Position numbers and translations under genes: made by a program. DNA of 64,000 nucleotides from NCBI GenBank assembly GCA_018064935.1, contig JAGHUF010000004.1:21432-85431 (forward strand), read 5' to 3'. A model generated the notes under the pieces. The model was not told where the DNA came from. It ran no database searches and was given only the letters and a program-made list of their open reading frames with translations. Positions 19,295 to 34,677 of this stretch are shown piece after piece (position 1 is the stretch's first letter; each line of letters starts with the position of its first letter). The DNA comes from Candidatus Merdinaster equi. Lineage in GTDB: Bacteria; Bacillota; Clostridia; Lachnospirales; Lachnospiraceae.

Positions 19295-20587
19295 TTATTT
19301 GCTAAGGGGACTCTTACGATAGATGATATCCTCTCTTCCGGGTCCATTAGATACCATTGTAATTGGGTATCCAATTTCATTCTCTATAAACTCTACATAC
19401 TTCCTACAATTCTCAGGTAAATCTTCATACTTCTTAATACCACGAATGTCACATTTCCAGCCAGGAAGTGTCTTGAGAACTGGTTTAGCCTTCTCAAGCT
19501 TGCATGTAACTGGGAAGTCTGTAGTCACTTCTCCATCAATCTCATATCCAACACATACTGGAATCTCATCCAGATATCCCAATGGATCAAGGACAGTAAA
19601 TGCAACATCAGTTGTTCCCTGAAGACGGCATCCATATTTAGATGCAACACAGTCGAACCAACCTACTCTTCTTGGACGTCCTGTAGTTGCTCCATATTCT
19701 CCCTTATCGCCTCCACGCTTTCTAAGTTCCTCAGCCTCATCTCCGAAAATCTCAGATACAAACGCTCCAGCACCAACAGCTGAAGAATATGCCTTACATA
19801 CAGTAACAATCTGCTTAATCTCATATGGAGGAATACCAGCGCCAATCGCACCATAAGCAGCAAGTGTTGATGATGATGTAACCATAGGATAGATACCATG
19901 ATCTGGATCCTTCATAGTTCCAAGCTGACCCTCTAACAGAATTGTCTTTCCTTCTTTAATAGCCTTATCAAGGAAGGCAGATACATCACAAACATATGGT
20001 GCAACCATATCTCTATAGCTATGAAGTGTTTCCAGCAGCTCATCTGGATTAATCTGTGGCTTGTGATAAAGATGCTCAAGCATAATATTCTTAAGCTCAC
20101 ATACTCTTGCAACCTTTTCTTTAAGAGTATCCTCATCAAACAACTCGCTTACCTGGAAACCAATTTTCGCATATTTATCTGAATAGAAAGGCGCAATTCC
20201 TGACTTTGTTGATCCAAATGATTTACCAGCCAATCTCTCCTCTTCATATGCATCAAACAATACATGATATGGCATAACAATCTGACATCTGTCTGACACC
20301 AAAATCTTAGGCATTGGAACATTACCATCAACGATTGCCTTTATTTCATTGAAAAGTTTTGGAATATCAAGCGCAACACCATTACCAATAATACTAGTTG
20401 TATGTGAATAGAACACACCAGATGGAAGTGTATGAAGTGCAAATCTACCATAATTGTTTACGATAGTATGTCCTGCATTAGCTCCACCCTGAAAACGAAT
20501 GATGATGTCAGCATTTTCTGCAAGCATATCTGTAATCTTGCCTTTTCCTTCATCACCCCAGTTTGCTCCAACAACTGCCTTAACCAT
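19295..20587 (-). CDS. purA: adenylosuccinate synthase
   Basis: 430 aa. GANWGDEGKGK P-loop, GGANAGHT and GTTGRPRR(V)GW. Confidence 0.95.
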   Translation of the reverse strand: MVKAVVGANWGDEGKGKITDMLAENADIIIRFQGGANAGHTIVNNYGRFALHTLPSGVFYSHTTSIIGNGVALDIPKLFNEIKAIVDGNVPMPKILVSDRCQIVMPYHVLFDAYEEERLAGKSFGSTKSGIAPFYSDKYAKIGFQVSELFDEDTLKEKVARVCELKNIMLEHLYHKPQINPDELLETLHSYRDMVAPYVCDVSAFLDKAIKEGKTILLEGQLGTMKDPDHGIYPMVTSSSTLAAYGAIGAGIPPYEIKQIVTVCKAYSSAVGAGAFVSEIFGDEAEELRKRGGDKGEYGATTGRPRRVGWFDCVASKYGCRLQGTTDVAFTVLDPLGYLDEIPVCVGYEIDGEVTTDFPVTCKLEKAKPVLKTLPGWKCDIRGIKKYEDLPENCRKYVEFIENEIGYPITMVSNGPGREDIIYRKSPLSK

Positions 20588-20740
20588 ATCAAATTCCTGC
20601 CTTTCACATTGACATTTGATTTGTGCACACGCACTCCTATAGTATATCGCGAATTACCGTGGATTTCCACCCTTTATCGTGAACATATATGAATACATAT
20701 ATGAATATATAAAAGCAACTCTTTGCAGGCTCGTGTGATT

Positions 20741-20769
20741 AAAAAAGGAGCGCCACATTGTGACGCCCC
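20741..20769 (-). terminator. intrinsic terminator after fba
   Basis: Reverse strand reads GGGGCGUCAC...GUGGCGCUCC (includes G-U pairs) followed by UUUUUU. Confidence 0.55.
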
Positions 20770-20787
20770 TTACATAATTCATTATAA

Positions 20788-21756
20788 TCAGATCTTGTTG
20801 TCAGAACCAAGAACGTTCTTAATCTTGTGAGCAACCATATCCTTAACAGCCTGACGAGCTGGTTTAAGGTACTGACGAGGATCGAAGTGATCAGGATGCT
20901 CTGCATAGTACTTTCTGATGTTACCTGTCATAGCAAGACGAATATCAGAGTCGATGTTAATCTTACATACAGCAAGCTTAGCTGCCTGACGAAGCTGCTC
21001 TTCAGGAATACCTACAGCATCTGGCATATTTCCGCCATACTGGTTAACCATCTTAACGAATTCCTGAGGAACTGAAGATGAACCATGAAGTACGATAGGG
21101 AATCCAGGAAGTCTCTTCATGCACTCCTCAAGTACATCAAAACGAAGTGGAGGTGGAACAAGAATTCCATCAGCATTTCTTGTACACTGAGCTGCAGTGA
21201 ACTTGTATGCACCATGAGAAGTACCGATTGCGATTGCAAGTGAATCACATCTTGTCTTATCAACGCACTCTTCTACTTCTTCAGGACGAGTATAGCTCTC
21301 TTTTCCTGCTTCAACTACTACTTCATCTTCGATACCAGCAAGTGTTCCAAGTTCAGCCTCTACTACTACGCCATGAGCGTGAGCATACTCTACTACCTGC
21401 TTGGTAAGAGCGATGTTATCCTCGAAGCTCTTAGAAGAAGCATCGATCATTACAGAAGTAAATCCGCCATCGATACAGCTCTTGCAAAGCTCGAATGAAT
21501 CACCATGATCAAGGTGAAGAGCGATAGGAATCTGAGGATTCTCTGCTACAGCTGCCTCAACTAACTTTACAAGATAGGTGTGGTTAGCGTATGCACGTGC
21601 GCCCTTTGAAACCTGAAGGATAACAGGGCTGTTAAGCTCGCCTGCTGCCTCGGTGATACCCTGAACGATTTCCATGTTGTTAACGTTGAATGCGCCAACT
21701 GCATAGCCACCGTCATAAGCCTTTTTAAACATTTCGGTTGTTGTAACTAATGCCAT
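20788..21756 (-). CDS. fba: class II fructose-1,6-bisphosphate aldolase
   Basis: 322 aa. FNVNNME, LHLDHG and HGSS motifs. Confidence 0.9.
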   Translation of the reverse strand: MALVTTTEMFKKAYDGGYAVGAFNVNNMEIVQGITEAAGELNSPVILQVSKGARAYANHTYLVKLVEAAVAENPQIPIALHLDHGDSFELCKSCIDGGFTSVMIDASSKSFEDNIALTKQVVEYAHAHGVVVEAELGTLAGIEDEVVVEAGKESYTRPEEVEECVDKTRCDSLAIAIGTSHGAYKFTAAQCTRNADGILVPPPLRFDVLEECMKRLPGFPIVLHGSSSVPQEFVKMVNQYGGNMPDAVGIPEEQLRQAAKLAVCKINIDSDIRLAMTGNIRKYYAEHPDHFDPRQYLKPARQAVKDMVAHKIKNVLGSDNKI

Positions 21757-21866
21757 TTTTATATCTTCCTTTCTTTAAGGTTTTTTAACTACGCCTAATT
21801 ATACACAGATTTTTGGTAAATGGGAAGAAGTTATCCTAAATTTGGATTTAATATAATTCCTTTGCC

Positions 21867-23303
21867 CTACACATTTATCTGAGCCTTAACTCCAAGCACT
21901 TCCTTGTTCGCTTCAAGAATCGGATTCACTTCCTCACGAAGGAATACCTCAACCTGATAAGGTGCTCGTCCAACATATTTAGATGGATCCATTGTTTTCT
22001 TAAGTTCATCAAGAGAGAGTCCAAATGCAGGATCTGCCGCAATGAGCTCAAGAAGATTATTATCAAGACCTTTCTCCTTAACATTTGCTCCGGCTTCCAT
22101 AGACTTAGTCCTTATCATCTCGTGAAGTTCCTGTCTGTCACCGCCCGCCTTTACAGCGTCCATCATTATATTCTCAGTTGCCATGAACGGAAGCTCACTC
22201 ATGAGTCTCTTGGTGATTACCTTATCATGAACAACAAGTCCATCAACAACATTCAGGCACAGATCCAGAACACCATCGATTGCCAGAAATCCTTCAGGAA
22301 TTGACAGTCTCTTATTAGCTGAATCATCCAATGTTCTCTCAAACCACTGAGTTGCAGAGGTAATAGCTGGATTAAGTGCATCAATCATTACATATCTTGA
22401 AAGAGATGCTATTCTCTCTGAACGCATTGGATTTCTCTTATAAGCCATCGCAGATGAGCCAATCTGATTTTTTTCAAATGGCTCTTCCACTTCTTTGAGG
22501 TGCTGCAGAAGTCTGATGTCATTGCTCATTTTGTGAGCAGATGCTGCAATTCCTGCAACAACATTAAGCACTCTTGTATCCTGCTTGCGCGAATAAGTCT
22601 GTCCAGATACTGGGAAGCATTTCTCGAATCCCATCTTGTTCGCAATCATTGTATCAATTTTATCAATAACTTCGTTGTTGCCATCAAACAACTCAAGGAA
22701 GGATGCCTGTGTACCTGTTGTTCCCTTTGAACCAAGCATCTTCATTCCTGACAGCACATGGTCAAGATCTTCTAAATCCATCAGGAATTCCTGCATCCAG
22801 AGGGTTGCTCTTTTTCCTACAGTTGTAGGCTGTGCCGGCTGGAAGTGTGTAAATGCAAGAGTGGGAAGTGACTTATACTCGTCAGCAAATTTTGCAAGCT
22901 CTGCAATAACATTAATCAGCTTCTTTCTTACAAGCTCAAGAGCTCTTGTCATAACGATGATATCTGTATTATCACCTACATAGCAGCTTGTTGCTCCAAG
23001 GTGGATAATACCCTTTGCTTTTGGACACTGAACACCATAGGCATAAACATGGCTCATAACGTCATGTCTAACTTCTTTTTCACGTGCCTTCGCAACATCA
23101 TAATTAATGTCATCCTGGTGCGCCTTTAGTTCCTCAATCTGCTCATCAGTAATATCCAGTCCAAGTTCTTTTTCCGTTTCAGCAAGTGCAATCCACAGCT
23201 TTCTCCAGGTTCTGAATTTCATATCAGGTGAGAAGATATACTGCATTTCCTTACTTGCATATCTCTCTGATAATGGGCTTACATATCTGTCTGTATCTGA
23301 CAT
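21867..23303 (-). CDS. purB: adenylosuccinate lyase
   Basis: 478 aa. YVSPLSERYASKEM N-terminus and the GSSAMAYKRNP signature loop. Confidence 0.95.
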   Translation of the reverse strand: MSDTDRYVSPLSERYASKEMQYIFSPDMKFRTWRKLWIALAETEKELGLDITDEQIEELKAHQDDINYDVAKAREKEVRHDVMSHVYAYGVQCPKAKGIIHLGATSCYVGDNTDIIVMTRALELVRKKLINVIAELAKFADEYKSLPTLAFTHFQPAQPTTVGKRATLWMQEFLMDLEDLDHVLSGMKMLGSKGTTGTQASFLELFDGNNEVIDKIDTMIANKMGFEKCFPVSGQTYSRKQDTRVLNVVAGIAASAHKMSNDIRLLQHLKEVEEPFEKNQIGSSAMAYKRNPMRSERIASLSRYVMIDALNPAITSATQWFERTLDDSANKRLSIPEGFLAIDGVLDLCLNVVDGLVVHDKVITKRLMSELPFMATENIMMDAVKAGGDRQELHEMIRTKSMEAGANVKEKGLDNNLLELIAADPAFGLSLDELKKTMDPSKYVGRAPYQVEVFLREEVNPILEANKEVLGVKAQINV

Positions 23304-23356: not shown

Positions 23357-24559
23357 TCAAAGTGCAGAATTCTTCTCCTCATACTCATCTAACAATGAGA
23401 GAATCTTGGCTGAGTCTTCCTTGTACTCAAGCACCATCCTTCTGATTTCTTCCATGCTGGTATCCGACAGCCTCTCACCGTTCTCAATCTGCTTACGAAG
23501 CGTCTGTCTTCTAACATTGTACTTATGCCTAATCTCGACCATTTCCTTCGGATTGAGTATCGCTTCATATTGATATATCCAGATAGTCGGGTCAAACAGA
23601 TTATATTTACGAAGCAGCCTTAACATATCTTTCTGATAATAATCAAGGTCCTCCATAACGCGGGCATACTCTGCTCTCAATTCTTTTTCTCTTCGATAAT
23701 CCTCAAGAAGCTTCTCTATCTTCCTCGAGGAATCATATCCATACTTGAGGTAATAATAATCGAGAAGATTTGTATTATTCACATAGCGAATCTTCACACG
23801 GTTCTGAAGCAAAATCAATTTGTCCATATTGCGGTTGATTCTATCGAGTTCCTGATCCGCATCCTTAAATCTTACAAATACAATAGTGAGCACCGTTGCA
23901 GTTATAAGAATTGCCATGATATATCCCAGCCTTACATCCATCTTGAGATATATCTGAAACAGCACCAATGCAAAAATAAGTATTCCCATTGCACCCAGGC
24001 ATACTTTGGCAACAGTCTTCAGATTCATCATAAGACCTGCCAGCTCACGTCTTCTCACATGGAAAGCCTGATGCTCGGCATCAAGTCTTTTTAAGTCGTG
24101 ATGAATTAAACTCTGGTAATCTTCTGTCTCACGAAGCTTGACAATACCTTCCTCAAGTTCAAGCTCATTAGCTTCTATCTCATGGAACTGTTCATCTGAC
24201 ATCGCCCCCTTATGAATTGGGTTTGAATTTCTTGATGTTTCAAGATTCTGCAGATTCTTACAACACGCAATAAGCTGCGAACGCTCGTCCTTAGGAAGTG
24301 CATCCAACTCCTCAATATCGCACAGATACGACGTCACTGACTGGTACTCACTCGACAGAGATTTGACATTGGACTTCGCATCCTGAAGCTGATCGAGTAA
24401 GCTTCTTACATAGGTCTCACGTCCCTCAGAGCTTGATAAATCAAAGTCTTCTCTTCTAACCTGATAGGCCTCGCTTTCCTTAAGTTCTTCTGACTCGGCC
24501 TCTACTTCTTCATATTCTTTTTTTCCACGGAAACCAAATAGTTTCTTAAATAGTCCCAT
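23357..24559 (-). CDS. uncharacterised coiled-coil / 2-TM / coiled-coil membrane protein (module gene 4)
   Basis: 400 aa. Charged heptad-like N-terminal half, two central TM helices (VCLGAMGILIFALVLFQIYL and LGYIMAILITATVLTIVFV), and a charged helical C-terminal half. It starts 3 nt after the upstream stop. Confidence 0.6.
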   Translation of the reverse strand: MGLFKKLFGFRGKKEYEEVEAESEELKESEAYQVRREDFDLSSSEGRETYVRSLLDQLQDAKSNVKSLSSEYQSVTSYLCDIEELDALPKDERSQLIACCKNLQNLETSRNSNPIHKGAMSDEQFHEIEANELELEEGIVKLRETEDYQSLIHHDLKRLDAEHQAFHVRRRELAGLMMNLKTVAKVCLGAMGILIFALVLFQIYLKMDVRLGYIMAILITATVLTIVFVRFKDADQELDRINRNMDKLILLQNRVKIRYVNNTNLLDYYYLKYGYDSSRKIEKLLEDYRREKELRAEYARVMEDLDYYQKDMLRLLRKYNLFDPTIWIYQYEAILNPKEMVEIRHKYNVRRQTLRKQIENGERLSDTSMEEIRRMVLEYKEDSAKILSLLDEYEEKNSAL

Positions 24560-24562
24560 CCG

Positions 24563-25390
24563 TTATTCTCCGCGTTTTCTGTACTCGTTTTTAAGATTCT
24601 CTGACAGCGTCAAAACCTGCTGCTTATATTCAGGTGTCTTCCCTGAATTAATCAGCTCATCAACACACTTCTTCTCATCTGATTGTATGTAAGCAGCTTT
24701 GGCATCTGCTATTCTGGAATCCGCCTCAAACTCCAGCGCTTCAATATCAACATTCGCAATCCCAGACAGTTTCCTCTTTATTGTCGCAGGATCATCATGG
24801 AGCTTAACTGCCATAATATAATTGACCAGGGCCTCTTTGGTAAAAGTCAGATGATACGACTTCTCAAACAGCTCCTGTGCATACTCAAACAAGAATAGTG
24901 AGCAGGCTGATTTTCCCATTGAATTGTATATATCACCAACAAGCAGAAGGTCCTTGTTTCCGACCTGACTGATAAGGAGCTGATAATCATATAGTGCACT
25001 GGCAGCATCGCCCATTGACGCTCTGTGGTCGATTCTTTTTTTCTGCCTCTCATATGGATTCAGTCTACCCGTCTCATTCAGCACTTCCCTGATTCTGACA
25101 AGTTCTTCTCTGGTCACATAATGTGCATACTCAAGTATCGTTGAGACAAAAAGAGCAAACGTGTTAATGCCTCTAAGCACCTGCATCAGATCCCTTGCCA
25201 GATCCCTAAGTCCAAGCTGCATATCAATCCACTCAACCAAGTTCTGTTTAAAGTCATCCTGATCAAGAAGCTCAGCATTTTCAACCAGATAGTAGCACAG
25301 CTCCTCAATGCAGTATATTCCCACACCGCTCTCGCCTATTCTATATGGAGTTGTAGCATAATTACCTATACAGGTTCTAAGCTTACTCAA
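24563..25390 (-). CDS. uncharacterised helical protein (module gene 3)
   Basis: 275 aa. TTG start preceded by AGGAGAAG. No recognised motif. 22-nt gap to the upstream gene. Confidence 0.55.
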   Translation of the reverse strand: MSKLRTCIGNYATTPYRIGESGVGIYCIEELCYYLVENAELLDQDDFKQNLVEWIDMQLGLRDLARDLMQVLRGINTFALFVSTILEYAHYVTREELVRIREVLNETGRLNPYERQKKRIDHRASMGDAASALYDYQLLISQVGNKDLLLVGDIYNSMGKSACSLFLFEYAQELFEKSYHLTFTKEALVNYIMAVKLHDDPATIKRKLSGIANVDIEALEFEADSRIADAKAAYIQSDEKKCVDELINSGKTPEYKQQVLTLSENLKNEYRKRGE

Positions 25391-25412
25391 TGTCTTCTCC
25401 TAATTATCGCTT

Positions 25413-26705
25413 CTATATCTCTATAACATCTTCAACAAGATAGTCCGTCTTCTTAAACAATTCGCCAAATCCCATATCTCTCACCGCAAGCTTCATATGT
25501 TCTTCATCTTCAAAGCTAAGATTAAGCGAGATACGTGACGCCTTCGGCGGTCTTGGCGGAAAGCCCTCCAGAACCATTTGAAGTTGCCTTTTTTCGCGTC
25601 CATTCATTGGCGTAATCACGATTTTTATTGCGGCATCTTCTTCCAATATAAATTCCTTGTATACCTCAATATCAAACCAGTTCGCACCAGCTTCAAACAG
25701 CGGAAGATATTTCTCTTCACCATCTGTCACAGCAAGGATTCCCACGTTAGCCCGAATCTTATCGCGTCCCAGGAAAACATTTTTGAGAGTCACTTCACTA
25801 GGATAAACTTTCTCAGCGGCCCCATAGCATGCACCCTTACTGTATAGATTATTCCCTTGGAATACTCTCTTATTACCGCACATGAACCTGAGCGACTCTT
25901 TCATCCAACCGCCGCCAAATCCATCTCCAATCAGAAAAACAGCATTTACAATCCGTCCATCACACAGCCCCTTTAGCACTTCAAGGAATTTCTCATCCTT
26001 GCGAGCTGATACGACTTCTTTTCTATCTTCATCATCTTCAGGAATTGCTTCCATAATGGACTTATCATGCGTCTGCTGCTCCATGAACGATACAGCCGGG
26101 GACTGTGCCACATTCATTTCCATTCTCATACTCGACAGACCATTTCTTGAATCCAGCAGGAGCAAATCATGTCCACGAAGTTCCTTACCCTGATGCATTA
26201 CATACTGATAAAAGCTTTCTGCATGGCTCTGGAAGAAAAAATGACTCCTGTCCATACTCATTTCTTCCATAACCTGTTCAAGAACACCAATCAGATGAAC
26301 ATCCATATCGTCAGAAGTTATCATAAGATAATCGCTGGCTTCCCCACCAAACACAAAACCGATTTGCGCTAGGGTTCTTTTAATAAATAAGGCAAGAAGC
26401 GATATTGGGCTAAAAGCCTCATCGGCAACTGGTACACTCACTCCTTCGAGCGCTTTACTTACCAGCTCTTTGACCAGGACAACATCCTCATCTGTTTCCT
26501 TTGCAAGCGCCTCCGGTCCCCAATACCACTGATTGACATCCTCTCGTTTGGCAAGCAGTGTAGGGATTGCAAACTGTTCCTTACCTGTAATGGTAGAAAA
26601 AGTTTCTGGTTCCAGCCTGTCGGAATAACAGTAGCTAAGCTGCGATATTGAATTACCAAGTTCAAGTCCGGCTATAAGCCTTCCCTTTTTATCTCGAAAC
26701 AGCAT
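25413..26705 (-). CDS. divergent Hsp70/actin-fold protein with degenerate nucleotide-binding motifs and an Hsp70-like beta substrate-binding domain, no lid (module gene 2)
   Basis: 430 aa. IAGLELGNSISQLSY matches DnaK IGIDLGTTNS. DLLLLDSRNGLSS sits where DLGGGT occurs. AVFLIGDGFGGGWMKESL...SKGACYGAAEKV matches LVGG.tRmP...DeaVA.GAA. LEGFPPRPPKASRISLNLSFEDEEHMKLAVRDMGFG matches L.GIPPAPRG.PQIEVTFDIDANGIL.VSAKD. GAGGTG RBS. Confidence 0.6.
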   Translation of the reverse strand: MLFRDKKGRLIAGLELGNSISQLSYCYSDRLEPETFSTITGKEQFAIPTLLAKREDVNQWYWGPEALAKETDEDVVLVKELVSKALEGVSVPVADEAFSPISLLALFIKRTLAQIGFVFGGEASDYLMITSDDMDVHLIGVLEQVMEEMSMDRSHFFFQSHAESFYQYVMHQGKELRGHDLLLLDSRNGLSSMRMEMNVAQSPAVSFMEQQTHDKSIMEAIPEDDEDRKEVVSARKDEKFLEVLKGLCDGRIVNAVFLIGDGFGGGWMKESLRFMCGNKRVFQGNNLYSKGACYGAAEKVYPSEVTLKNVFLGRDKIRANVGILAVTDGEEKYLPLFEAGANWFDIEVYKEFILEEDAAIKIVITPMNGREKRQLQMVLEGFPPRPPKASRISLNLSFEDEEHMKLAVRDMGFGELFKKTDYLVEDVIEI

Positions 26706-26711
26706 TTGTTG

Positions 26712-29700
26712 CTACACCTCACTGCGGAACAACTGTCCAACAACATATTTCTTCTCTGAATAATTCTCATATACAGAATTGAATGTCATATATTCACCAA
26801 GATTTCCTGCAACCATCATATCATTCAGTAGCGCATATCTTGAGTCTGGTGATACTTCGTTAGTATCATTCTTGCTAATAGTGTCACTCTGTGTAAGCTG
26901 CTCTTCCCCATCTCTATTCTCAGTAATGTAATACTGAAGCGTCTCCCCGAAAAAGAGAACAAACGAGTACACATATATATCTCTGTACATTCTCTTCATC
27001 GGAATTGTAAGATATTCAGCCTCGCCGGTTCCTCGCTCAATGCAGTAGTGGATAGTAACATCCGTTCCACCTTCCGCATGATATTCAATCATTGTCTGGT
27101 CAAGTATGAGCGACAATGACGGGAGCACCTTGCCATAATTTCTGAAGAACGGGAACACAATGCTCTTTCCCATGAATTCCTCCAGGAAACGGACGCATAA
27201 CTGCAGTGTCTCCTCACTTCTGTCCGCGCAATCTGCATAGTATTTGAGATATGCAAGTTTACAAACATCCTGAAGTTCCTCACCACGATAAAACAATCTC
27301 GTGTAGTAAGTCCACATTTCACTGTCCATCACCTGCTCATCTTCAAAATAACCCTGTGCTTCGCTAGTGAGGAATGCAATCTCCACAACCTTCTTTGCAC
27401 CATTTTTCACATATGAGTAGAACAGCTGATTCTTCTCGCCAACATAGCAGCCTGTAAACAAATATTGGACGATTATCCTCTCGCACAGCTCATTCACATC
27501 TAAGTCAAACTCACTTCCGGCTTTCCACAAATCACGCAGATTCCTTATAGTGCCCTGATAATATGCTATAAGATAACGAAGCAGATTCTCATCATATCTT
27601 TTTTTGCGGAAAATAGAGAATGCCAGTGTCAGCAAAGTGTCATCCTCTTTGTATTCCATTCGCACTATGAGCCTGCTGACAAGTCTTATCAGAATATTTC
27701 CATCCGCAAGACCTTCCCCATACTGTGCCAGCCAGCTGTATGCCACATCATACATTCCTCGGTTTACAAGAAGCTGAAGGAATTCGGCCCTTTCCTTCTC
27801 ACCCATTGTTGCCGGACTAACATCAGCAAGTATTTCATCGACTTCAGAAATCAAATCATTCTCATAATAGAATTTTGCCAGGCGAAGCCTGATTTCCTTG
27901 CGGAACGCTTCAGTTATTCTGTCTGACTTCCACAATCTTCTAAACGAAACCGCATTCTTTACAGTGATTGTAATTCCATTTTCTGTATTGCCACATAGAT
28001 GAAGATCAAGACCTAAATGAGTTGATACTCTTTCACCAATAATTTTTATAAACCTGCCCGGAATCATTAGTTTTTCAATATCATACAATTCCTCGCTGGC
28101 AATACGATTTCCACCTGCATCCTGGAGAACAATACTGTAATCCGAACTGTACACCGGAACTATAGCTTTGCCACCCACAACAGGATATGTCATCTCTCCT
28201 TTTAGCTTGTCATAAATAATTACAAGCTGACGGATACTCTCATCATTAACAGTTATCAAATGCGAAAACAAAATTGGAACAAAGGCTTCTACTAACTGCT
28301 CATCTCTGAGCACTGCCTCATTGACAAGTTCCTTGTATAAATATGCCAAATCCCGCGTTATATGGCTTTGACGAATCTGGTCAATAACAAATTCTTCAAT
28401 AAGAGTCCTGTATGTATCATATATTTCTGGGAACTTATCCCTATACCTGTAAACGTTTGCATAAAGGAATGCTTTTTTGTCATATGACAATTCTGAATGA
28501 TATGCAAAGTACATCATAATCATCTTAGGGAGCTCTCTTGTGTAACTCTCCGGAATCGCCATCATATAGTATTCAAACAATCTGGTTACCCTGAGTTCAC
28601 GCTCTACTCCAAGGCTATACCAGGCAAATTCCTTCTCCGAAGTTTTATTGCCTCTTATCAGCATGGTACATATCAGTTCAAGCGTATCATCATCCTCGGC
28701 CACCTGATAACACTTCTCCAGAATAAACAGAAGTCTTGATGAATATGTTCTGGTTCTCTGAACCAGTGCATGAATCTGCAGAATCAGATCTCTTTTGAGC
28801 AGCTCTTTTTTAGCCGCAAAGTTGAGTATCTGAAGTTCATATTCCGTAAGCTTCATGAGAAGGGTGGGGTTTGCATTGAGAAGCGTCAGAGCCTCCACAT
28901 AGAGAACCGGGCTTATGCAGCCACCATAAAACTGCTGTTCTAAGAACATCCACTTCTTATAAGGACTTTTCGCAAATTCCTCACGAAGATACAAAAGCAG
29001 CCATGCTATTCTCCAATTATCTGAATACCTTGCATATATATCTTCCACCTTGGAAGTAACCTGATTTACGTACTCCTCGTCTCTATTAACCAAGCTGGTC
29101 AAATAAAGATAATAGCAGTATTCCTCAGGCTTAGAATCTGTTTTCTCCAATTCAGCTTCTACTCGACCAAGAATCCACTTTGCTTCATTCACTCTGTCCT
29201 GCGTAATAAGAATCTGCGCCTGAAACATACGTGCAGATAGATTTTTCTCATCAATGGCATTCATTCTGTCGACTATATCCGCAGTATTTTTAAGCCACAT
29301 GTCTGAGGATATCTTTTTTAATCTGAATGCAGTGTAATACTCCATGAGACTAAGAGTAAGTTCCTGCATTTGCTTCTTAACAGACCTGCGGAGTGCACGA
29401 CTGTATGGACGCGTAACCAAAACTGGAATCTCAATAGATGTGTAAGGACTATAAATATGAATCTTACCGTAGTTATTACCTGCATGAAGCTTGGATGAAT
29501 CCACATAATAACTAAATGTACAGATATTTCCCAGAAAATTATCATCAGTCAGATAGTTCTTCTCTGTAGACAGAAAATCGCCATCAGTTTCTATTGCAAG
29601 TGCTGTTAATCCCCAGCCATTCCTTGTAATAGTCACCTTACCTTCTTCAACATCGTACGGATCTTCTATTCTGATATGTTCCTCCATCGGGAGGTATTCA

Positions 29701-30272
29701 ATCTTCTGTTTTTTATTAATCGCATTGAGAAAAGAATCGACATTCTGCTCATTGCCACGAATTCTTGATAATCCACGATATATTCCGAGATATTTTAGAT
29801 CATTTCCATGAAATACAGATGTAAACTCAGAGCTATAGAATAAAGACACTGCCTCAGACCAGTTACTCTTAGCCAGATTGGCAAAATGGAACAGATTCTT
29901 GACTGGTCCCATTGATGAACTTATTACGCCATGCATGGCTGACACAGAATATGGAATCACGCACTCGCCCGCGCTGCTTATGATAGATATTTCACCCTTC
30001 TCAATATCACCCTCTTCAAGCCCATCAGCTTTGAATGAATAATATATTTCCGCATTTTTCCCCTCGAAGGTGCTGGTGAGAATTTGCATCCGCATAGACG
30101 AAGAAAAAACCATCCCCTTGACGCTCTGTCCATCATCTGTGGACACACTAAAAGAACCCTGCTGGGTACTCTGATCGCTTAGGGATAGTTCAATCCGATT
30201 AACAGAAACAACAAGGGTGCTTCTGTCGTAATTAAATTTTCCTTCCGTTATATTGCGGACTGTCTGCTGCAA
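26712..30272 (-). CDS. uncharacterised 1186-aa protein: two N-terminal beta-sandwich-like segments, long alpha-helical-repeat body, C-terminal beta domain (module gene 1)
   Basis: TTG start with AGAGGA 8 nt upstream. I found no Walker A, nuclease, protease or TM motifs. Composition alternates beta-rich stretches (ISIISSAGECVIPYSVSA, KIHIYSPYTSIEIPVLVTRP) and Y/L/E-rich helical stretches. Confidence 0.6.
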   Translation of the reverse strand: MQQTVRNITEGKFNYDRSTLVVSVNRIELSLSDQSTQQGSFSVSTDDGQSVKGMVFSSSMRMQILTSTFEGKNAEIYYSFKADGLEEGDIEKGEISIISSAGECVIPYSVSAMHGVISSSMGPVKNLFHFANLAKSNWSEAVSLFYSSEFTSVFHGNDLKYLGIYRGLSRIRGNEQNVDSFLNAINKKQKIEYLPMEEHIRIEDPYDVEEGKVTITRNGWGLTALAIETDGDFLSTEKNYLTDDNFLGNICTFSYYVDSSKLHAGNNYGKIHIYSPYTSIEIPVLVTRPYSRALRRSVKKQMQELTLSLMEYYTAFRLKKISSDMWLKNTADIVDRMNAIDEKNLSARMFQAQILITQDRVNEAKWILGRVEAELEKTDSKPEEYCYYLYLTSLVNRDEEYVNQVTSKVEDIYARYSDNWRIAWLLLYLREEFAKSPYKKWMFLEQQFYGGCISPVLYVEALTLLNANPTLLMKLTEYELQILNFAAKKELLKRDLILQIHALVQRTRTYSSRLLFILEKCYQVAEDDDTLELICTMLIRGNKTSEKEFAWYSLGVERELRVTRLFEYYMMAIPESYTRELPKMIMMYFAYHSELSYDKKAFLYANVYRYRDKFPEIYDTYRTLIEEFVIDQIRQSHITRDLAYLYKELVNEAVLRDEQLVEAFVPILFSHLITVNDESIRQLVIIYDKLKGEMTYPVVGGKAIVPVYSSDYSIVLQDAGGNRIASEELYDIEKLMIPGRFIKIIGERVSTHLGLDLHLCGNTENGITITVKNAVSFRRLWKSDRITEAFRKEIRLRLAKFYYENDLISEVDEILADVSPATMGEKERAEFLQLLVNRGMYDVAYSWLAQYGEGLADGNILIRLVSRLIVRMEYKEDDTLLTLAFSIFRKKRYDENLLRYLIAYYQGTIRNLRDLWKAGSEFDLDVNELCERIIVQYLFTGCYVGEKNQLFYSYVKNGAKKVVEIAFLTSEAQGYFEDEQVMDSEMWTYYTRLFYRGEELQDVCKLAYLKYYADCADRSEETLQLCVRFLEEFMGKSIVFPFFRNYGKVLPSLSLILDQTMIEYHAEGGTDVTIHYCIERGTGEAEYLTIPMKRMYRDIYVYSFVLFFGETLQYYITENRDGEEQLTQSDTISKNDTNEVSPDSRYALLNDMMVAGNLGEYMTFNSVYENYSEKKYVVGQLFRSEV

Positions 30273-30312
30273 GTTATTTTCCTCTTATCCTCATAGTCCT
30301 TTTTATTATAAT

Positions 30313-31365
30313 TTAAGGGGTGTTCAAACGCAATATTTTTACCCTCTGAATGAACTCTCTGATAGTGTTCATCCCAGCTGGTGAGGTTCCCCCAGTTGTG
30401 ACCGCTCCGGCAGAGGCAGCTATGCTTATTTTAAGCTTCTGCTCCATATCCTCGCCCCGCTCACTTGAATAAGAATAAGCAGCTACGAGAGCATCTCCTG
30501 CACCTACGGTAGATATCGCATCAACCTCGAGTGCCGGACAGTAATAATGGGTATCCTGAATCAGAAAAAGAGCACCCAATTCACCAAGAGACACAATAAC
30601 CTCTCTAACCCCCTGCTCGCGCACCAGATTCCCCATCAGGTAGGCCGATGTAATTAATGAAATCTCAGAATCCGAAAGGCCATCACCTGCCTTTTCCCCT
30701 ATGCCTGCTTTCTTCAATTTTGCTTCCACACGGCTAAGGAGTTCCTGTTTTTCAGTCCTTTTCTCATCCAGATGAAAGCCCGAATTCTCTATGTATTTCT
30801 CAAGTTCTTCATAATTAGGCTTTACTATATCCGGAACACATGAAAGGGCTTTGATAAGGCCTTCTCCATCTGCGTCTACAAACGCAAAAGCACCCTTGTC
30901 ATGAACGAGGGTGATCAGTTTATCATATATGTCTGTATTTATTCCTTTGGGAAGGGAACCGCTTATTATTACATAATCGCCAATTCTGATAGCATTTGTA
31001 AGCTTATCAAATAATCCTGCCAGCTCATCCTCAGTTATCTCAGGACCAGGTTCATTAATCTCAGTAACAAAGCCATCATCACCTGTGACCTTCAGATTAG
31101 TCCTTGTGGCCTCACGAATTCTGACGAAGTCATGCTCAATATGCATCTTGTCAAGGGTGTTGGCTATCTGCCACCCTGCCATTCCTCCCAGAAAACCTAC
31201 TGCGAGAGATTTGCCACCAAGACTTTGTATCGTCTTGGAAACATTTATCCCCTTGCCACCGGCGTCTTCTCTGACGCCGGTAACACGGTTTAATTTTCCT
31301 ACTTTAAGTGCCGGCACACTAACAGTTTTATCAATTGCCGGATTCATTGTAATTGTAATAATCAT
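30313..31365 (-). CDS. PfkB-family sugar(-phosphate) kinase (1-phosphofructokinase / tagatose-6-P kinase-like)
   Basis: MIITITMNPAIDKT, DAGGKGINVS and TVGAGDALVAAY are PfkB signatures. The ATG at 31365 is 1 nt past the htpG TAA (31367-31369). The track start (TTG at 31377) would overlap htpG by 11 nt. Confidence 0.8.
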   Translation of the reverse strand: MIITITMNPAIDKTVSVPALKVGKLNRVTGVREDAGGKGINVSKTIQSLGGKSLAVGFLGGMAGWQIANTLDKMHIEHDFVRIREATRTNLKVTGDDGFVTEINEPGPEITEDELAGLFDKLTNAIRIGDYVIISGSLPKGINTDIYDKLITLVHDKGAFAFVDADGEGLIKALSCVPDIVKPNYEELEKYIENSGFHLDEKRTEKQELLSRVEAKLKKAGIGEKAGDGLSDSEISLITSAYLMGNLVREQGVREVIVSLGELGALFLIQDTHYYCPALEVDAISTVGAGDALVAAYSYSSERGEDMEQKLKISIAASAGAVTTGGTSPAGMNTIREFIQRVKILRLNTP

Positions 31366-31366
31366 C

Positions 31367-33430
31367 TTATTCTGCAAGAAGGAGCATTATCTTGTTAGTA
31401 CGTGCAACAAACTTAGTCATAGCTTCAGGATCAAGTGGTGCCTGCTGAAGAAGTGCCATATCATAGAGCTGTTCGCAGATAACACTTACATTATCACCTG
31501 ACTGATTATCCAGAATATACTGTACAAGCTTGTTATTGGCATTCAGAGTAAGAGTCATTCCCTCTTTGCCCATTCCGCCAGGCATACCCATTCCAGCCAT
31601 TCCGTACATCTTCATCATATCCTGCATACGGCGTGTTTCCTCAGAAAGAGTAATCATTGATGAAATGTCTTTATTCTTAAGATTCTCAAGCTTAACAGAA
31701 ATATTGTCCTTCTTAATTATCTTCTTGAAGAGCTTTTCTAAATCCTTGCTCTTTGCCTCTAATTCTTCAGCCTGCTTCTTGCTGGTTTTACCCTTCAGTT
31801 CATCATTGATGTCAGCATCGATTCTCATGAAGTGAATTCCTTCATTCTTAGATTCAAGCTGGCTGATGAATGGTTGGTCAATATTATCCTTAAGAATAAT
31901 TGCATCCTTCTTAGCCTTGCGGAACATATTGATGTACTGGCTCTGCTGAACTTCATCAGTTACGTAGTAGATGACCTTATTCTTCTCTTCTTTTTCATCT
32001 GCATCAGCATCCTCACCAGGCTTGATTTCCTCAGCTTCAACCTTCTCTCCGCTCTCTGCATCAACCGCATCAGCTGCATTCTCATCGCTATCAGGATCTG
32101 TAGCTTTAACTTCAAGGCATTCTGGAAGCGTCTCATATTTGCCGTCAAGATTCTTAAAGAGAATGTAATCTGTCATCTTCTCACAGAACTTATCATCCTT
32201 AAGACATCCATATTTGATAAATGGATTGATATCATCCCAGTACTTCTCATACTCCTCTTTCTCAGTCTTGCACATTCCTGAGAGCTTATCTGCAACCTTC
32301 TTAATGATGTAATCTGAAATCTTCTTAACAAATCCATCATTCTGAAGGGCTGAACGTGATACGTTCAATGGAAGATCAGGACAGTCAATTACTCCCTTTA
32401 AGAGCATAAGGAATTCAGGAATAACCTCCTTGATATTATCAGCGATAAATACCTGATTATTGTACAGTTTGATAGTTCCTTCGATAGACTCATACTCCAT
32501 GTTAATCTTAGGGAAGTACAGGATACCCTTTAAATTGAATGGATAGTCCATATTCAAATGAATCCAGAACAGAGGCTCCTTGTAATCATGGAATACCTTT
32601 CTGTAGAATTCAACGTAATCTTCCTTGGTACATTCAGTTGGATTCTTGGTCCAAAGAGGCTGTGTATCATTCAGAAGTTCTGGGCGCTTTGCAATCTTCA
32701 GTTTCTTAGCATCGCCCTCCTTCTCAGGAGCTATTTCCTCAATCACCTTATCCGAATCAAGCTTCTCGCTCTCTTCGATAGTCTGAGTATCAGTTGTGTT
32801 CTCCTTTGACAGATAAATCTCATAAGGCATGAAAGAACAATACTTCTTAATAACCTCGCGCGCTTCATATTCATTACAGAACTTGAGTACATCCTCATTG
32901 AGGAAAAGAGTAATCTTTGTTCCTACTTCCGCCTTGTCTCCTTCTTCCATATCGAACTCTGTTCCACCATCACATTCCCAGTGAACAGGCTTTGCTCCCT
33001 CTTTATAAGAAAGCGTATCAATATGAACCTCGTCAGCAACCATAAATGCCGAATAGAATCCCAGACCAAAATGACCAATAATCTGATCATCTCCAGCCTT
33101 ATCTTTATACTTCTCAATAAAATCTGTAGCTCCTGAGAATGCAATCTGGTTAATGTACTCCTCAACCTCATCAGCTGTCATTCCAAGACCATTATCTATA
33201 AAAGTAAGAGTCTTTTTCTCAGGTGAACATATTACCGAAATCTGTCCCTTGAAGCCCTCTGGAAGCTCATATTCTCCCATCATGTCCAGCTTCTTCAGCT
33301 TGGTAATTGCATCACAGCCATTTGATATTAACTCTCTGTAAAAAATATCATGGTCAGAATATAACCACTTCTTAATTATTGGAAAAATGTTATCAGAATT
33401 AATTGATAAGCTACCATGTTTTGATGCCAT
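31367..33430 (-). CDS. htpG: molecular chaperone Hsp90
   Basis: FYRELISNGCDA, DNGLGMT and GHFGLGFYSAF are the GHKL Hsp90 motifs. Start is set at MASKHG (33430), 9 nt downstream of AAGGGAG. The track start at 33469 lacks an RBS. Confidence 0.95.
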   Translation of the reverse strand: MASKHGSLSINSDNIFPIIKKWLYSDHDIFYRELISNGCDAITKLKKLDMMGEYELPEGFKGQISVICSPEKKTLTFIDNGLGMTADEVEEYINQIAFSGATDFIEKYKDKAGDDQIIGHFGLGFYSAFMVADEVHIDTLSYKEGAKPVHWECDGGTEFDMEEGDKAEVGTKITLFLNEDVLKFCNEYEAREVIKKYCSFMPYEIYLSKENTTDTQTIEESEKLDSDKVIEEIAPEKEGDAKKLKIAKRPELLNDTQPLWTKNPTECTKEDYVEFYRKVFHDYKEPLFWIHLNMDYPFNLKGILYFPKINMEYESIEGTIKLYNNQVFIADNIKEVIPEFLMLLKGVIDCPDLPLNVSRSALQNDGFVKKISDYIIKKVADKLSGMCKTEKEEYEKYWDDINPFIKYGCLKDDKFCEKMTDYILFKNLDGKYETLPECLEVKATDPDSDENAADAVDAESGEKVEAEEIKPGEDADADEKEEKNKVIYYVTDEVQQSQYINMFRKAKKDAIILKDNIDQPFISQLESKNEGIHFMRIDADINDELKGKTSKKQAEELEAKSKDLEKLFKKIIKKDNISVKLENLKNKDISSMITLSEETRRMQDMMKMYGMAGMGMPGGMGKEGMTLTLNANNKLVQYILDNQSGDNVSVICEQLYDMALLQQAPLDPEAMTKFVARTNKIMLLLAE

Positions 33431-33491
33431 ATAATTCATCTCCCTTTCTATATACATGCCATTTATCACGGCAAATTATTACGATATTTTC

Positions 33492-33527: not shown

Positions 33528-33554
33528 TTAGCACTCACTAAACATGAGTGCTAA
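33528..33554. promoter_or_regulatory. CIRCE operator (HrcA binding site), perfect consensus TTAGCACTC-N9-GAGTGCTAA
   Basis: TTAGCACTC at 33528-33536, a 9-nt spacer, and GAGTGCTAA at 33546-33554. It overlaps the stop codon of the PrsA-like gene and abuts the htpG -35. Confidence 0.85.
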
Positions 33555-34677
33555 TAGTCATGAAAAAATCTGTTGTTTTTACATCTTCATCAGAGATTAT
33601 TGTTATCTCTTTCCACAGCTCATCATTGATATTCTTTGTGAGCTTTGCAACAAATTGTTCATATATCTCGTCAAATACAGCTTTCTTTCTCTCATCGACA
33701 ATTTTTATTTTATTATTATCTGTCTCATCTTTGTCAAAAGAAGAAATACATCTGATAATCTCATATCCATCCGGCGTCTCTACAATGTCCGATATTTCTC
33801 CATTGCCCAGAAGAAATGCAGCCTTTTCAAATTCAGGTTCCATATCGCCATGCATAAACGAATAGAAATTATCTGCAGCCTCATTGTACTCAAGCATAAT
33901 AGATTCGAATTCTCCAGGCCTTACAGCTTCCTCCACGACATTGCCTTCGTCATCTAAAACTGCTTCTTTTCCCTTCACCAGCTCAAGGACTGCCAGTGCT
34001 CTTTCATAGGCTTCCTGCTTCATTCTGCTCGTGAATTCAATCTTCTCCCCTTTTCCATTAAGCGAATAGGTCTTAATCAGGATATGCTCAACAGTTATGG
34101 TTCGCGCTTCATCATCGGATATTTCAGGATTAATGTCCTTTACTATGTAGTCATATGTCTTTTCAGCAAGCACATATTCTGCATACATTTTCTGGATATC
34201 TTCCAAAGAGACATCTAGTACTTCCAGTTCCTTATCACTTAGCGACATAAAGTAATCTTTTGCCGCCTGCGTTACCGCATCATTCTCTTCCTGCGTCAGC
34301 TCAACACCCTGTTCTCTGGCCAGAAGAACCATCGCCTTCACTCGGGATATTCTGGCCAGAACTGTGTCCTTTAATTTATCCTCAAGTGTAAGTCCTTCCT
34401 CACCAGAGGATTTCTCCCATATCTGTGAATCAAGTATGTTCTCATACTGATTCTGTGTATTTATTAGATACACCATGAACTCTTTTTGAGAGCAGGACAG
34501 ATTCTCAATACGAAACAGCTCTCCGGCACCGAAACCATCTGTAAGAACGATCTTGGTCTGCGGTACATTTTCACCGTCTCCCCCTGCCGCACAGCCTGTT
34601 AGTGCAATGATAAAAACAGCACCTAGCATCGCTGCAAGAGCGCTTCCCTTTTTTATGTTTTTTGGCTTAAATTTCAT
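33538..34677 (-). CDS. PrsA-like peptidyl-prolyl isomerase lipoprotein (parvulin type)
   Basis: 379 aa. Lipobox IIALTGC. Rotamase domain ITVEHILIKT...EFEKAAFLLGNGEISDIVETPDGYEIIRC. Confidence 0.75.
   Translation of the reverse strand: MKFKPKNIKKGSALAAMLGAVFIIALTGCAAGGDGENVPQTKIVLTDGFGAGELFRIENLSCSQKEFMVYLINTQNQYENILDSQIWEKSSGEEGLTLEDKLKDTVLARISRVKAMVLLAREQGVELTQEENDAVTQAAKDYFMSLSDKELEVLDVSLEDIQKMYAEYVLAEKTYDYIVKDINPEISDDEARTITVEHILIKTYSLNGKGEKIEFTSRMKQEAYERALAVLELVKGKEAVLDDEGNVVEEAVRPGEFESIMLEYNEAADNFYSFMHGDMEPEFEKAAFLLGNGEISDIVETPDGYEIIRCISSFDKDETDNNKIKIVDERKKAVFDEIYEQFVAKLTKNINDELWKEITIISDEDVKTTDFFMTISTHV

Follow-up and report, generated by a model that had tools for sequence, protein, structure and literature searches.

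A family-wide four-gene module of Lachnospiraceae encodes a predicted lidless Hsp70-like protein together with a tetratricopeptide-repeat partner, a giant scaffold and a membrane hairpin

We analysed a stretch of 64,000 nucleotides (the window, hereafter) of contig JAGHUF010000004.1, which comes from a metagenome-assembled genome (MAG) of the Lachnospiraceae, Candidatus Merdinaster equi, and within it a run of four minus-strand genes that we call A, B, C and D (Table 1). On balance, we think it probable that A-B-C-D is an autonomous, vertically inherited operon, the products of which form one membrane-anchored complex containing an ATPase-dead Hsp70 clamp and its tetratricopeptide-repeat (TPR) partner. 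The genomic and structural parts of this picture are far firmer than the functional ones; complex formation, the role of B as a clamp and its independence of ATP are what we infer. A reading made earlier from the letters of the window (the original prediction) had taken the four genes to belong to a heat-shock operon in which they cooperate with the product of the upstream gene htpG. Our results uphold the part of that reading that describes a co-inherited module with an Hsp70-like protein B, a scaffold A and a membrane protein D, but not the heat-shock operon or the partnership with HtpG.

All four open reading frames (ORFs), with their predicted sizes and the gaps between them (6 nt between A and B, 22 nt between B and C, and 3 nt between C and D), were reproduced on the minus strand. 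A GAGG/AGGAG box resembling a ribosome-binding site lies ahead of each of the four starts, and the two TTG starts, those of A and C, are consistent with the N-termini and lengths of homologues, as had been supposed. We then compared the module with its relatives. One genome per GTDB species was scanned, at least 565 species have a relative of B, and the best 80 of these make up the set of loci used below. A, B and C were present in 80 of the 80 loci and D in 79, the single miss falling at a contig end. The order and strand of A-B-C-D were always identical, and the median gaps were 18, 14 and 11 nt. All loci are labelled as Lachnospiraceae or as related or unclassified Clostridia MAGs, save one (L058) labelled 'uncultured Bacteroides sp.', and the module is, as far as seen, restricted to Lachnospiraceae. 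The flanks are variable and no fifth gene is conserved. Distant contigs, among them that of Eshraghiella crossota, retain this order at ~30% identity, so that the four genes do co-occur outside this genome, as the original prediction expected of a real module.

Correlations among the distance matrices of the four proteins are r = 0.87-0.94 (partial r controlling for purB, 0.82-0.91), compared with r = 0.55-0.65 for the same matrices against purB and 0.70-0.85 against htpG. Compared with purB or htpG, the four proteins evolve ~3-4 times faster; in the same genomes the mean pairwise p-distance was 0.50-0.62 for A-D, 0.14 for purB and 0.20 for htpG. We also noted that the lengths of A-D are nearly constant despite this fast evolution.

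B is a 430-residue protein that matches Pfam DUF5716_C over nearly the entire model (positions 2-295 of 296; 303 bits, E = 2e-90), above the gathering threshold. Its AlphaFold2 (AF2) model, which has a predicted local distance difference test (pLDDT) score of 92.2 and a predicted template modelling (pTM) score of 0.89, comprises a nucleotide-binding domain (NBD; ~aa 9-308), a hydrophobic linker (~309-312) and the beta-sandwich part of a substrate-binding domain (SBD-beta; ~313-430, with strands at 319-429). In a Foldseek search with this model all of the top 50 matches were Hsp70s, aligned over both NBD and SBD (~505-560 aligned columns; E from 1e-19 to 1e-14, best 1.8e-19). The matches include DnaK, Hsc70, BiP, Ssz1 and Hsp110, and the best query-based scores (TMq 0.59-0.61) were to the domain-docked DnaK structures 7krv and 7kru. 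According to both the model and Foldseek, B thus has the two-lobed actin-like NBD of Hsp70s and, after a hydrophobic linker, an SBD-beta that aligns with full-length as well as lid-less DnaK structures. The motifs LLDAGxNW, ITPLNG, GFGE and NLYSKGAC of B are near-invariant.

The sequence of B tells much less. No match to the HSP70 profiles of Pfam or NCBIfam was found at E <= 0.01, and comparison with the sequences in the PDB, by single sequence and by family profile, gave nothing relevant, the sole match being a TEV-tag artefact. Alignment of the B family by hhalign with E. coli DnaK gave a weak SBD-beta match (E 0.09), in which the region LEGLPERP...TRL..I.M...ED.GFG of B runs parallel to a DnaK segment. 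Because this match is weak, the Hsp70 assignment of B rests on structure. A search of 1.84 billion representatives with the B profile returned 686 clusters at E <= 1e-30 and 1839 at E <= 1e-3; with only 1839 proteins returned, canonical Hsp70s were therefore not reached. The B family is moderately large and stands apart in sequence from canonical Hsp70s, and its members would have a true Hsp70 fold that structure prediction recovers and sequence searches do not detect.

B departs from Hsp70s at several points. It ends at aa 430, right after the last strand of SBD-beta, and so has no alpha-helical lid (SBD-alpha); its homologues are 410-445 aa long. The C-terminus is modelled as a buried SBD strand, without a free tail of the EEVD type. 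Nor are the residues for binding and hydrolysis of ATP preserved, as can be seen from 91 homologues, in which the register relative to DnaK was set by eye along the AF2 secondary structure instead of by structural superposition. The equivalent of DnaK K70 is E in 59 homologues, D in 14, T in 12 and K in 3 (E, D or T in 85 of the 91), and that of E171 is S in 71 and G in 15. The GGGT phosphate-2 loop, to which T199 belongs, is replaced by Y/F-x-x-x, and the TT of the GTTNS phosphate-1 loop is absent. Domain scans of A, C and D found no J-domain or GrpE partner, and such partners may be encoded elsewhere in the genome. Since B lacks the lid and the catalytic residues and does not match the family profile, we call it an Hsp70-derived paralogue and not a member of the DnaK family. 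Both the structural matches and the column frequencies agree with the prediction that B is a compact protein of Hsp70 fold in which the ATP motifs are degraded.

C consists of a conserved N-terminal domain (PY...Y..EELCY), a pair or triplet of TPRs (~aa 110-190) and a C-terminal helix. Over aa 110-190, a profile of 28 homologues matched consensus TPR (CTPR; 1.6e-6) and Tah1 (1.7e-4) in the PDB, and the best natural matches were Tah1, Sti1, CHIP and SGTA. Pfam TPR_12 is matched by 18 of the 28 homologues and TPR_2 by 14, while C of the window alone scores below the Pfam threshold. What had been described simply as a helical protein is thus a TPR protein by its family profile. B and C are, moreover, found as one polypeptide: six proteins of 717-765 aa (P0287, P0312, P0320, P0322, P0328 and P0410) carry C at the C-terminus of B, and the six clusters are more than 50% divergent from one another. 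Residues 446-715 of P0312, for instance, match the C profile with E = 1.6e-54. At the fusion loci L086-L089 the module is a three-gene operon, A / B::C / D. A further long protein in the C cluster, P0268 (936 aa), has an N-terminal C part and an unrelated C-terminal part; it appeared by eye to be a chimera of assembly or gene calling and was not used.

A matches DUF5717_N (1011 bits, E = 0, model positions 1-874 of 875) and DUF5717 (333 bits, E = 2e-99, 1-306 of 306), both above the gathering threshold, and is 1155-1214 aa long among the 120 relatives listed. Its AF2 model (pLDDT 86.6) contains four beta-sandwiches (~aa 20-112, 192-288, 670-735 and 1060-1133), a helical insert (127-184) and two TPR-like alpha-solenoids (293-668 and 739-1055). 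By Foldseek, the N-terminal part resembles ASH/Ig-like domains, such as those of ciliary central-pair proteins and CEP192 SPD-2, and the body resembles TPR scaffolds (Ski3, Ctr9, Naa15, IFT-A and UNC-45). No enzymatic domain and no transmembrane (TM) segment was found in A. Model and Foldseek thus agree with the earlier description of beta-sandwiches and helical repeats lacking an enzyme motif, and suggest that A is a large non-enzymatic cytoplasmic scaffold.

D is, by hydropathy, the only membrane protein among the four, A, B and C being soluble. Two TM segments (aa 183-201 and 211-229, at ~23873-24013 of the window) are joined by a loop of ~7 aa, with hydropathy peaks of 2.5 and 2.45. The position of the two peaks is shared by the 27 sequences that we scanned, some of which have them overlapping or merged; this bears out the predicted arrangement of coiled coil, two TM segments and coiled coil. 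The hairpin is flanked by an N-terminal cytoplasmic coiled-coil region with the conserved motif EY..VT.YL.D.EE...LP and by a C-terminal cytoplasmic helical region with LILLQN.VKIRYVNN.NLLDY and KEMVEIRH..RRQ.LR. The D profile found only coiled-coil noise in the PDB and Pfam; DUF2207_C was matched by 7 and SLATT_4 by 2 of the 27 members, none significantly. We noted in passing that YLTDMEE of D resembles an FFAT-like ligand of the MSP/ASH-like domains of A, and LILLQN an Hsp70-type peptide; these are resemblances only.

The module has, judging from consensus matches, a housekeeping-type promoter of its own (sigma-A, extended -10). It spans the 3' end of the upstream gene pfkB and the 40-nt gap before A, and was overlooked in the original prediction. 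Its -35 element TTGCGT (30333-30328) lies within the last pfkB codons and is separated by a 17-nt spacer from the -10 element TATAAT (30310-30305), which begins 2 nt past the pfkB stop; the predicted promoter ends 32 nt upstream of the TTG of A. The closest relative, L001, also carries TTGCGT-17-TATAAT upstream of A. Indeed, a box of the form TTGCNN-N17/18-(TGn)TATAAT/TATACT lies at most ~60 nt from the start of A in 46 of 73 related loci, compared with 1.1 expected from shuffles and 7 of 157 control intergenic regions.

We propose that D, inserted as a two-TM hairpin whose coiled-coil arms both face the cytoplasm, would act as the anchor, that A would be a giant platform of TPRs and beta-sandwiches, and that C would be a small TPR adaptor binding B. 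In B, an Hsp70 paralogue stripped of its lid and of the machinery of ATP hydrolysis, the SBD-beta, which is strongly conserved, would stay docked on the NBD permanently; rather than cycling as a chaperone, B may thus hold peptides statically and without ATP, as a clamp or holdase. The complex would sit at the cytoplasmic face of the membrane. Several points weigh against this proposal. Physical contact among A-D is a proposal, and the mirror-tree correlations may stem from a shared fast rate instead of contact. The promoter of A is a consensus match and not a mapped transcription start, and no terminator separates pfkB from A in this genome, so that heat-inducible read-through may supplement the promoter. 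In B, the mapping of the ATP site rests on a by-eye register, not on superposition, and acidic equivalents of DnaK D8 and D194 are retained (D or E in 90 of 91 homologues), so that B may still bind nucleotide. A bolder version, in which the module is a new bacterial chaperone-derived machine, an ATPase-less and lidless Hsp70 with an obligate and in some lineages fused TPR partner on a TPR/Ig scaffold of 1200 residues, serving without ATP as a membrane-tethered station that captures or docks specific clients on the cytoplasmic side, is speculative and we hold it only tentatively.

The heat-shock reading, in which HrcA and the operator CIRCE (controlling inverted repeat of chaperone expression) would control the module, and HtpG would work with a private Hsp70-like protein, scaffold and anchor as a stress or proteostasis machine, draws on the window itself: htpG, pfkB and A-D all run in one direction, 1 nt separates htpG from pfkB, no terminator precedes A, and a perfect CIRCE lies, as predicted, ahead of htpG. 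In addition, htpG is within the ~6.4 kb examined upstream of A in 45 of the 80 loci, the distance matrices of A-D correlate more with htpG than with purB, and the proteins that C matches best are Hsp90/Hsp70 co-chaperones. However, whereas CIRCE stands ahead of htpG in 28 of 28 loci in which the upstream region of htpG is present, it was found (with up to 3 mismatches) within 400 nt upstream of A in none of 73. A has its own conserved predicted promoter instead, its immediate upstream gene is on the opposite strand in 37 of the 73 loci, and 15 of the 36 co-directional gaps contain a terminator-like hairpin. htpG and A adjoin directly in only 5 loci, 4 of them with such a hairpin in between; htpG usually lies 1.5-4 kb away (median 2.75 kb), the space being occupied by variable genes. 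It is not near the E. crossota copy or the fusion-lineage locus L088, and purB is linked to the module more often (61 of the 80 loci). Short TPR domains in the PDB are mostly from co-chaperones, which makes the matches of C nonspecific, and HtpG of the window ends in ...LLLAE, without an EEVD-like tail. CIRCE or heat-shock control is thus not supported as a conserved feature of the module, the linkage to htpG and CIRCE did not prove to be conserved, and a joint machine with HtpG seems to us quite improbable. The position of the module by CIRCE-htpG most likely reflects inherited chromosomal synteny and not co-regulation, and its even commoner position by purine genes probably does so too. Co-directional adjacency to CIRCE-htpG is not evidence of heat-shock control, tempting as that misreading is. 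The purine genes allow a similar argument, that the module is a purinosome-like scaffold for purine biosynthesis co-transcribed with purC, purF or purB. The gene next after D in 74 loci is purC in 19, purF in 12 and purB in 7 (38 in all), and these genes follow behind an inserted amino-acid ABC transporter in 21 more. The gene downstream of D is co-directional in 68 of the 74, a terminator-like hairpin follows D in only 7 of these 68, and purB comes directly after D in the window (53 nt past it) and in the fusion lineages L087-L089. On the other hand, the gaps between D and the pur genes contain promoter-like boxes of their own, the following gene differs between loci, some of which have an inserted ABC transporter; behind the E. 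crossota copy lies valS, and the nearest 10 kb contain no pur gene; and the distance matrices of A-D correlate least with purB. It looks as if thyA-dfrA-PHP-prsA-htpG ... ABCD ... purC/purF/purB/purA were a synteny conserved at the family level, with purB, purA, htpG, prsA, thyA and dfrA on one conserved chromosomal segment, and a role in purine synthesis is very unlikely.

Another possibility accepts the Hsp70 fold and keeps it at work: B would be a nucleotide-regulated minimal Hsp70 with membrane clients, and A, C or D would replace the J-protein and GrpE. The acidic D8 and D194 equivalents would suit such a protein, as would the conserved hydrophobic linker (Y/V-F-L-G) and adenosine-side motifs (G260 and NxxxSKGA) and the resemblance of the B model to the domain-docked, allosterically active state of DnaK. 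Yet, throughout the family, other residues stand at the K70 and E171 equivalents and in the two phosphate-binding loops, B is lidless, the operon has no J-domain or GrpE-like protein, and similarity to Hsp70 profiles is lacking, so that we consider a working chaperone unlikely. The least probable explanation, by our estimate, is that the module acts in anti-phage defence or conflict, or travels as cargo of a mobile element. It arises from matches of B in records of 'Bacteriophage sp.' and in two IMG/VR contigs, from the faint SLATT_4 match in 2 of 27 D homologues (E >= 0.013) and from the fast evolution of A-D. The records with A-B-C-D are three GenBank entries, 'UNVERIFIED: Bacteriophage sp.' (L083, MT835486.1; L084, MT835719.1; L085, MT835988.1), but L083 is E. 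crossota chromosome, with rarA, valS (split into two ORFs), glycosyltransferases and moxR; the 'viral' IMG/VR contigs L081 and L082 may be misclassified likewise. The E. crossota copy of B is on at least 1000 contigs. Scans of A-D with NCBIfam and PADLOC (the latter at E <= 1) and a plasmid search gave no match, no nuclease, NTPase or toxin domain was found, and the position of the module among housekeeping genes is fixed in 80 species, which largely refutes a defence or mobile origin. A role in sporulation was set aside, given the sigma-A-like promoter and the occurrence of the module in Butyrivibrio and Eshraghiella, neither of which is known to sporulate. We thus return to the membrane-anchored complex with a clamp-like B as the reading that we prefer.

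Upstream of the module in the window (Table 1), htpG was identified by NCBIfam NF003555 with 657 bits. The only CIRCE of the window sits 3.2 kb upstream of A; the chance expectation is 0.04 matches even with 3 mismatches allowed. It lies across the stop codon that ends the PrsA-like gene before htpG, and precedes the predicted -35 box of htpG. Our scan for terminator-like hairpins also flags this CIRCE, as a hairpin with a T-run. The start of htpG is probably the ATG at 33430, which is preceded by AAAGGGAG, rather than the mechanically called GTG at 33469; since the NCBIfam HtpG model matches from residue 18 of the long ORF, the N-terminus of that ORF would be ~13 residues too long. The true start of pfkB is probably the ATG at 31365, 1 nt past the htpG stop (31367-31369), and because of this spacing the sugar kinase gene probably belongs, in this genome, to the CIRCE-htpG transcript. 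The pfkB product scores 283 bits, just under the 1-phosphofructokinase equivalog cut-off of 292, and its Pfam match is interrupted by an insert at ~aa 215-235; pfkB is at this position in only 5 of the 80 relatives. Our scan of the 40-nt gap between pfkB and A (30273-30312) found zero terminator-like sites on the minus strand, in line with the earlier statement that the gap has no hairpin or U-tract. An Rfam scan of the whole window returned zero RNA families. Across the related loci the most frequent upstream neighbour (43 of 80) is a ~423-aa protein that ends in a peptidoglycan-binding domain (PF01471) and has an N-terminal part without a Pfam match; its gene usually lies between htpG and A, on either strand (for example, at 2584-3855 of L029).

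Table 1. Positions in the window of the module genes, neighbouring genes and predicted control elements.
Feature	Position	Strand	Description
Gene A	26712-30272	-	1186 aa, TTG start; Pfam DUF5717_N and DUF5717
Gene B	25413-26705	-	430 aa, ATG start; Pfam DUF5716_C
Gene C	24563-25390	-	275 aa, TTG start; putative helical TPR adaptor
Gene D	23357-24559	-	400 aa, ATG start; putative membrane anchor
Predicted sigma-A-type promoter of A	30305-30333	-	Consensus match TTGCGT-17-TATAAT
pfkB	30313-31365	-	Co-directional with A-D; PfkB kinase, TIGR03168 hexose kinase
Predicted promoter of htpG	-35 at 33520-33515, -10 at 33497-33492		
CIRCE upstream of htpG	33528-33554		0 mismatches to TTAGCACTC-N9-GAGTGCTAA
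PrsA-like gene preceding htpG	33538-34677		
Purine genes following the module	19295-23303		

We compared the module with known systems. B shares with canonical Hsp70/DnaK (PF00012) the actin-like NBD, the hydrophobic linker and the SBD-beta sandwich, but differs in its ~12% identity, in the missing lid and in the unconserved K70, E171, T199 and phosphate loops; the module, furthermore, has no adjacent J-protein or GrpE and seems not to be CIRCE-controlled. Closer in kind are Ssz1 of the eukaryotic ribosome-associated complex (RAC) and the Hsp70 of the ciliary central pair, in which an Hsp70 fold with a truncated SBD is a stable subunit of an assembly. The Foldseek matches of B include both (Ssz1/RAC in 6sr6, 7x3k and 5mb9; central-pair Hsp70 in 7sqc_Z0). 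Ssz1 is not known to require ATP hydrolysis for its function. By analogy, non-cycling Hsp70s such as Ssz1 in RAC may be the nearest functional counterparts of B, although Ssz1 is eukaryotic, recognisable as an Hsp70 by sequence and partnered by the J-protein Zuo1, whereas B is bacterial, with TPR partners and a membrane anchor. The pairing, and in some genomes the fusion, of the TPR protein C with the Hsp70-fold protein B, together with an apparent membrane tether, recalls the TPR partners of Hsp70 and Hsp90 in eukaryotes, both co-chaperones (Hop/Sti1, Tah1, CHIP and SGTA) and the membrane-associated docking proteins Tom70/Sec72. This is a resemblance only, as B is ATPase-degenerate and has no EEVD-type tail, the matches of C are generic, and a carboxylate clamp (K/N/N/K/R) in C would be hypothetical. 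The HrcA-CIRCE regulon touches the module through the neighbouring htpG and differs from it in the points given above.

B and A are full-length members of Pfam DUF5716 and DUF5717 (DUF, domain of unknown function), entries that carry no function and after which relatives in NCBI and UniRef are named; C and D have no Pfam family of their own. Searches of the literature for DUF5716 and DUF5717, for their Pfam and InterPro accessions, and for Hsp70, TPR and Lachnospiraceae found nothing relevant; the four-gene operon, the Hsp70 fold of DUF5716, the TPR partner with its fusion and the membrane anchor are all absent from the literature found. The statement in the original prediction that no characterised system matches the module holds for NCBIfam, PADLOC and the literature alike.

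The above results supply predicted folds for two Pfam DUFs and add two partner families, C and D, that lack Pfam entries. B would show how, in nature, an Hsp70 fold can be put to use without ATPase and lid, and its pairing with a TPR protein in bacteria is backed by gene fusion; if true, the Hsp70-TPR partnership, usually deemed eukaryotic, would have a counterpart in bacteria. Lachnospiraceae rank with the most abundant gut bacteria of mammals. Because the operon is kept family-wide at 30-50% identity, the module likely has a basic cellular function, one that is specific to the lineage and not revealed by any model organism.

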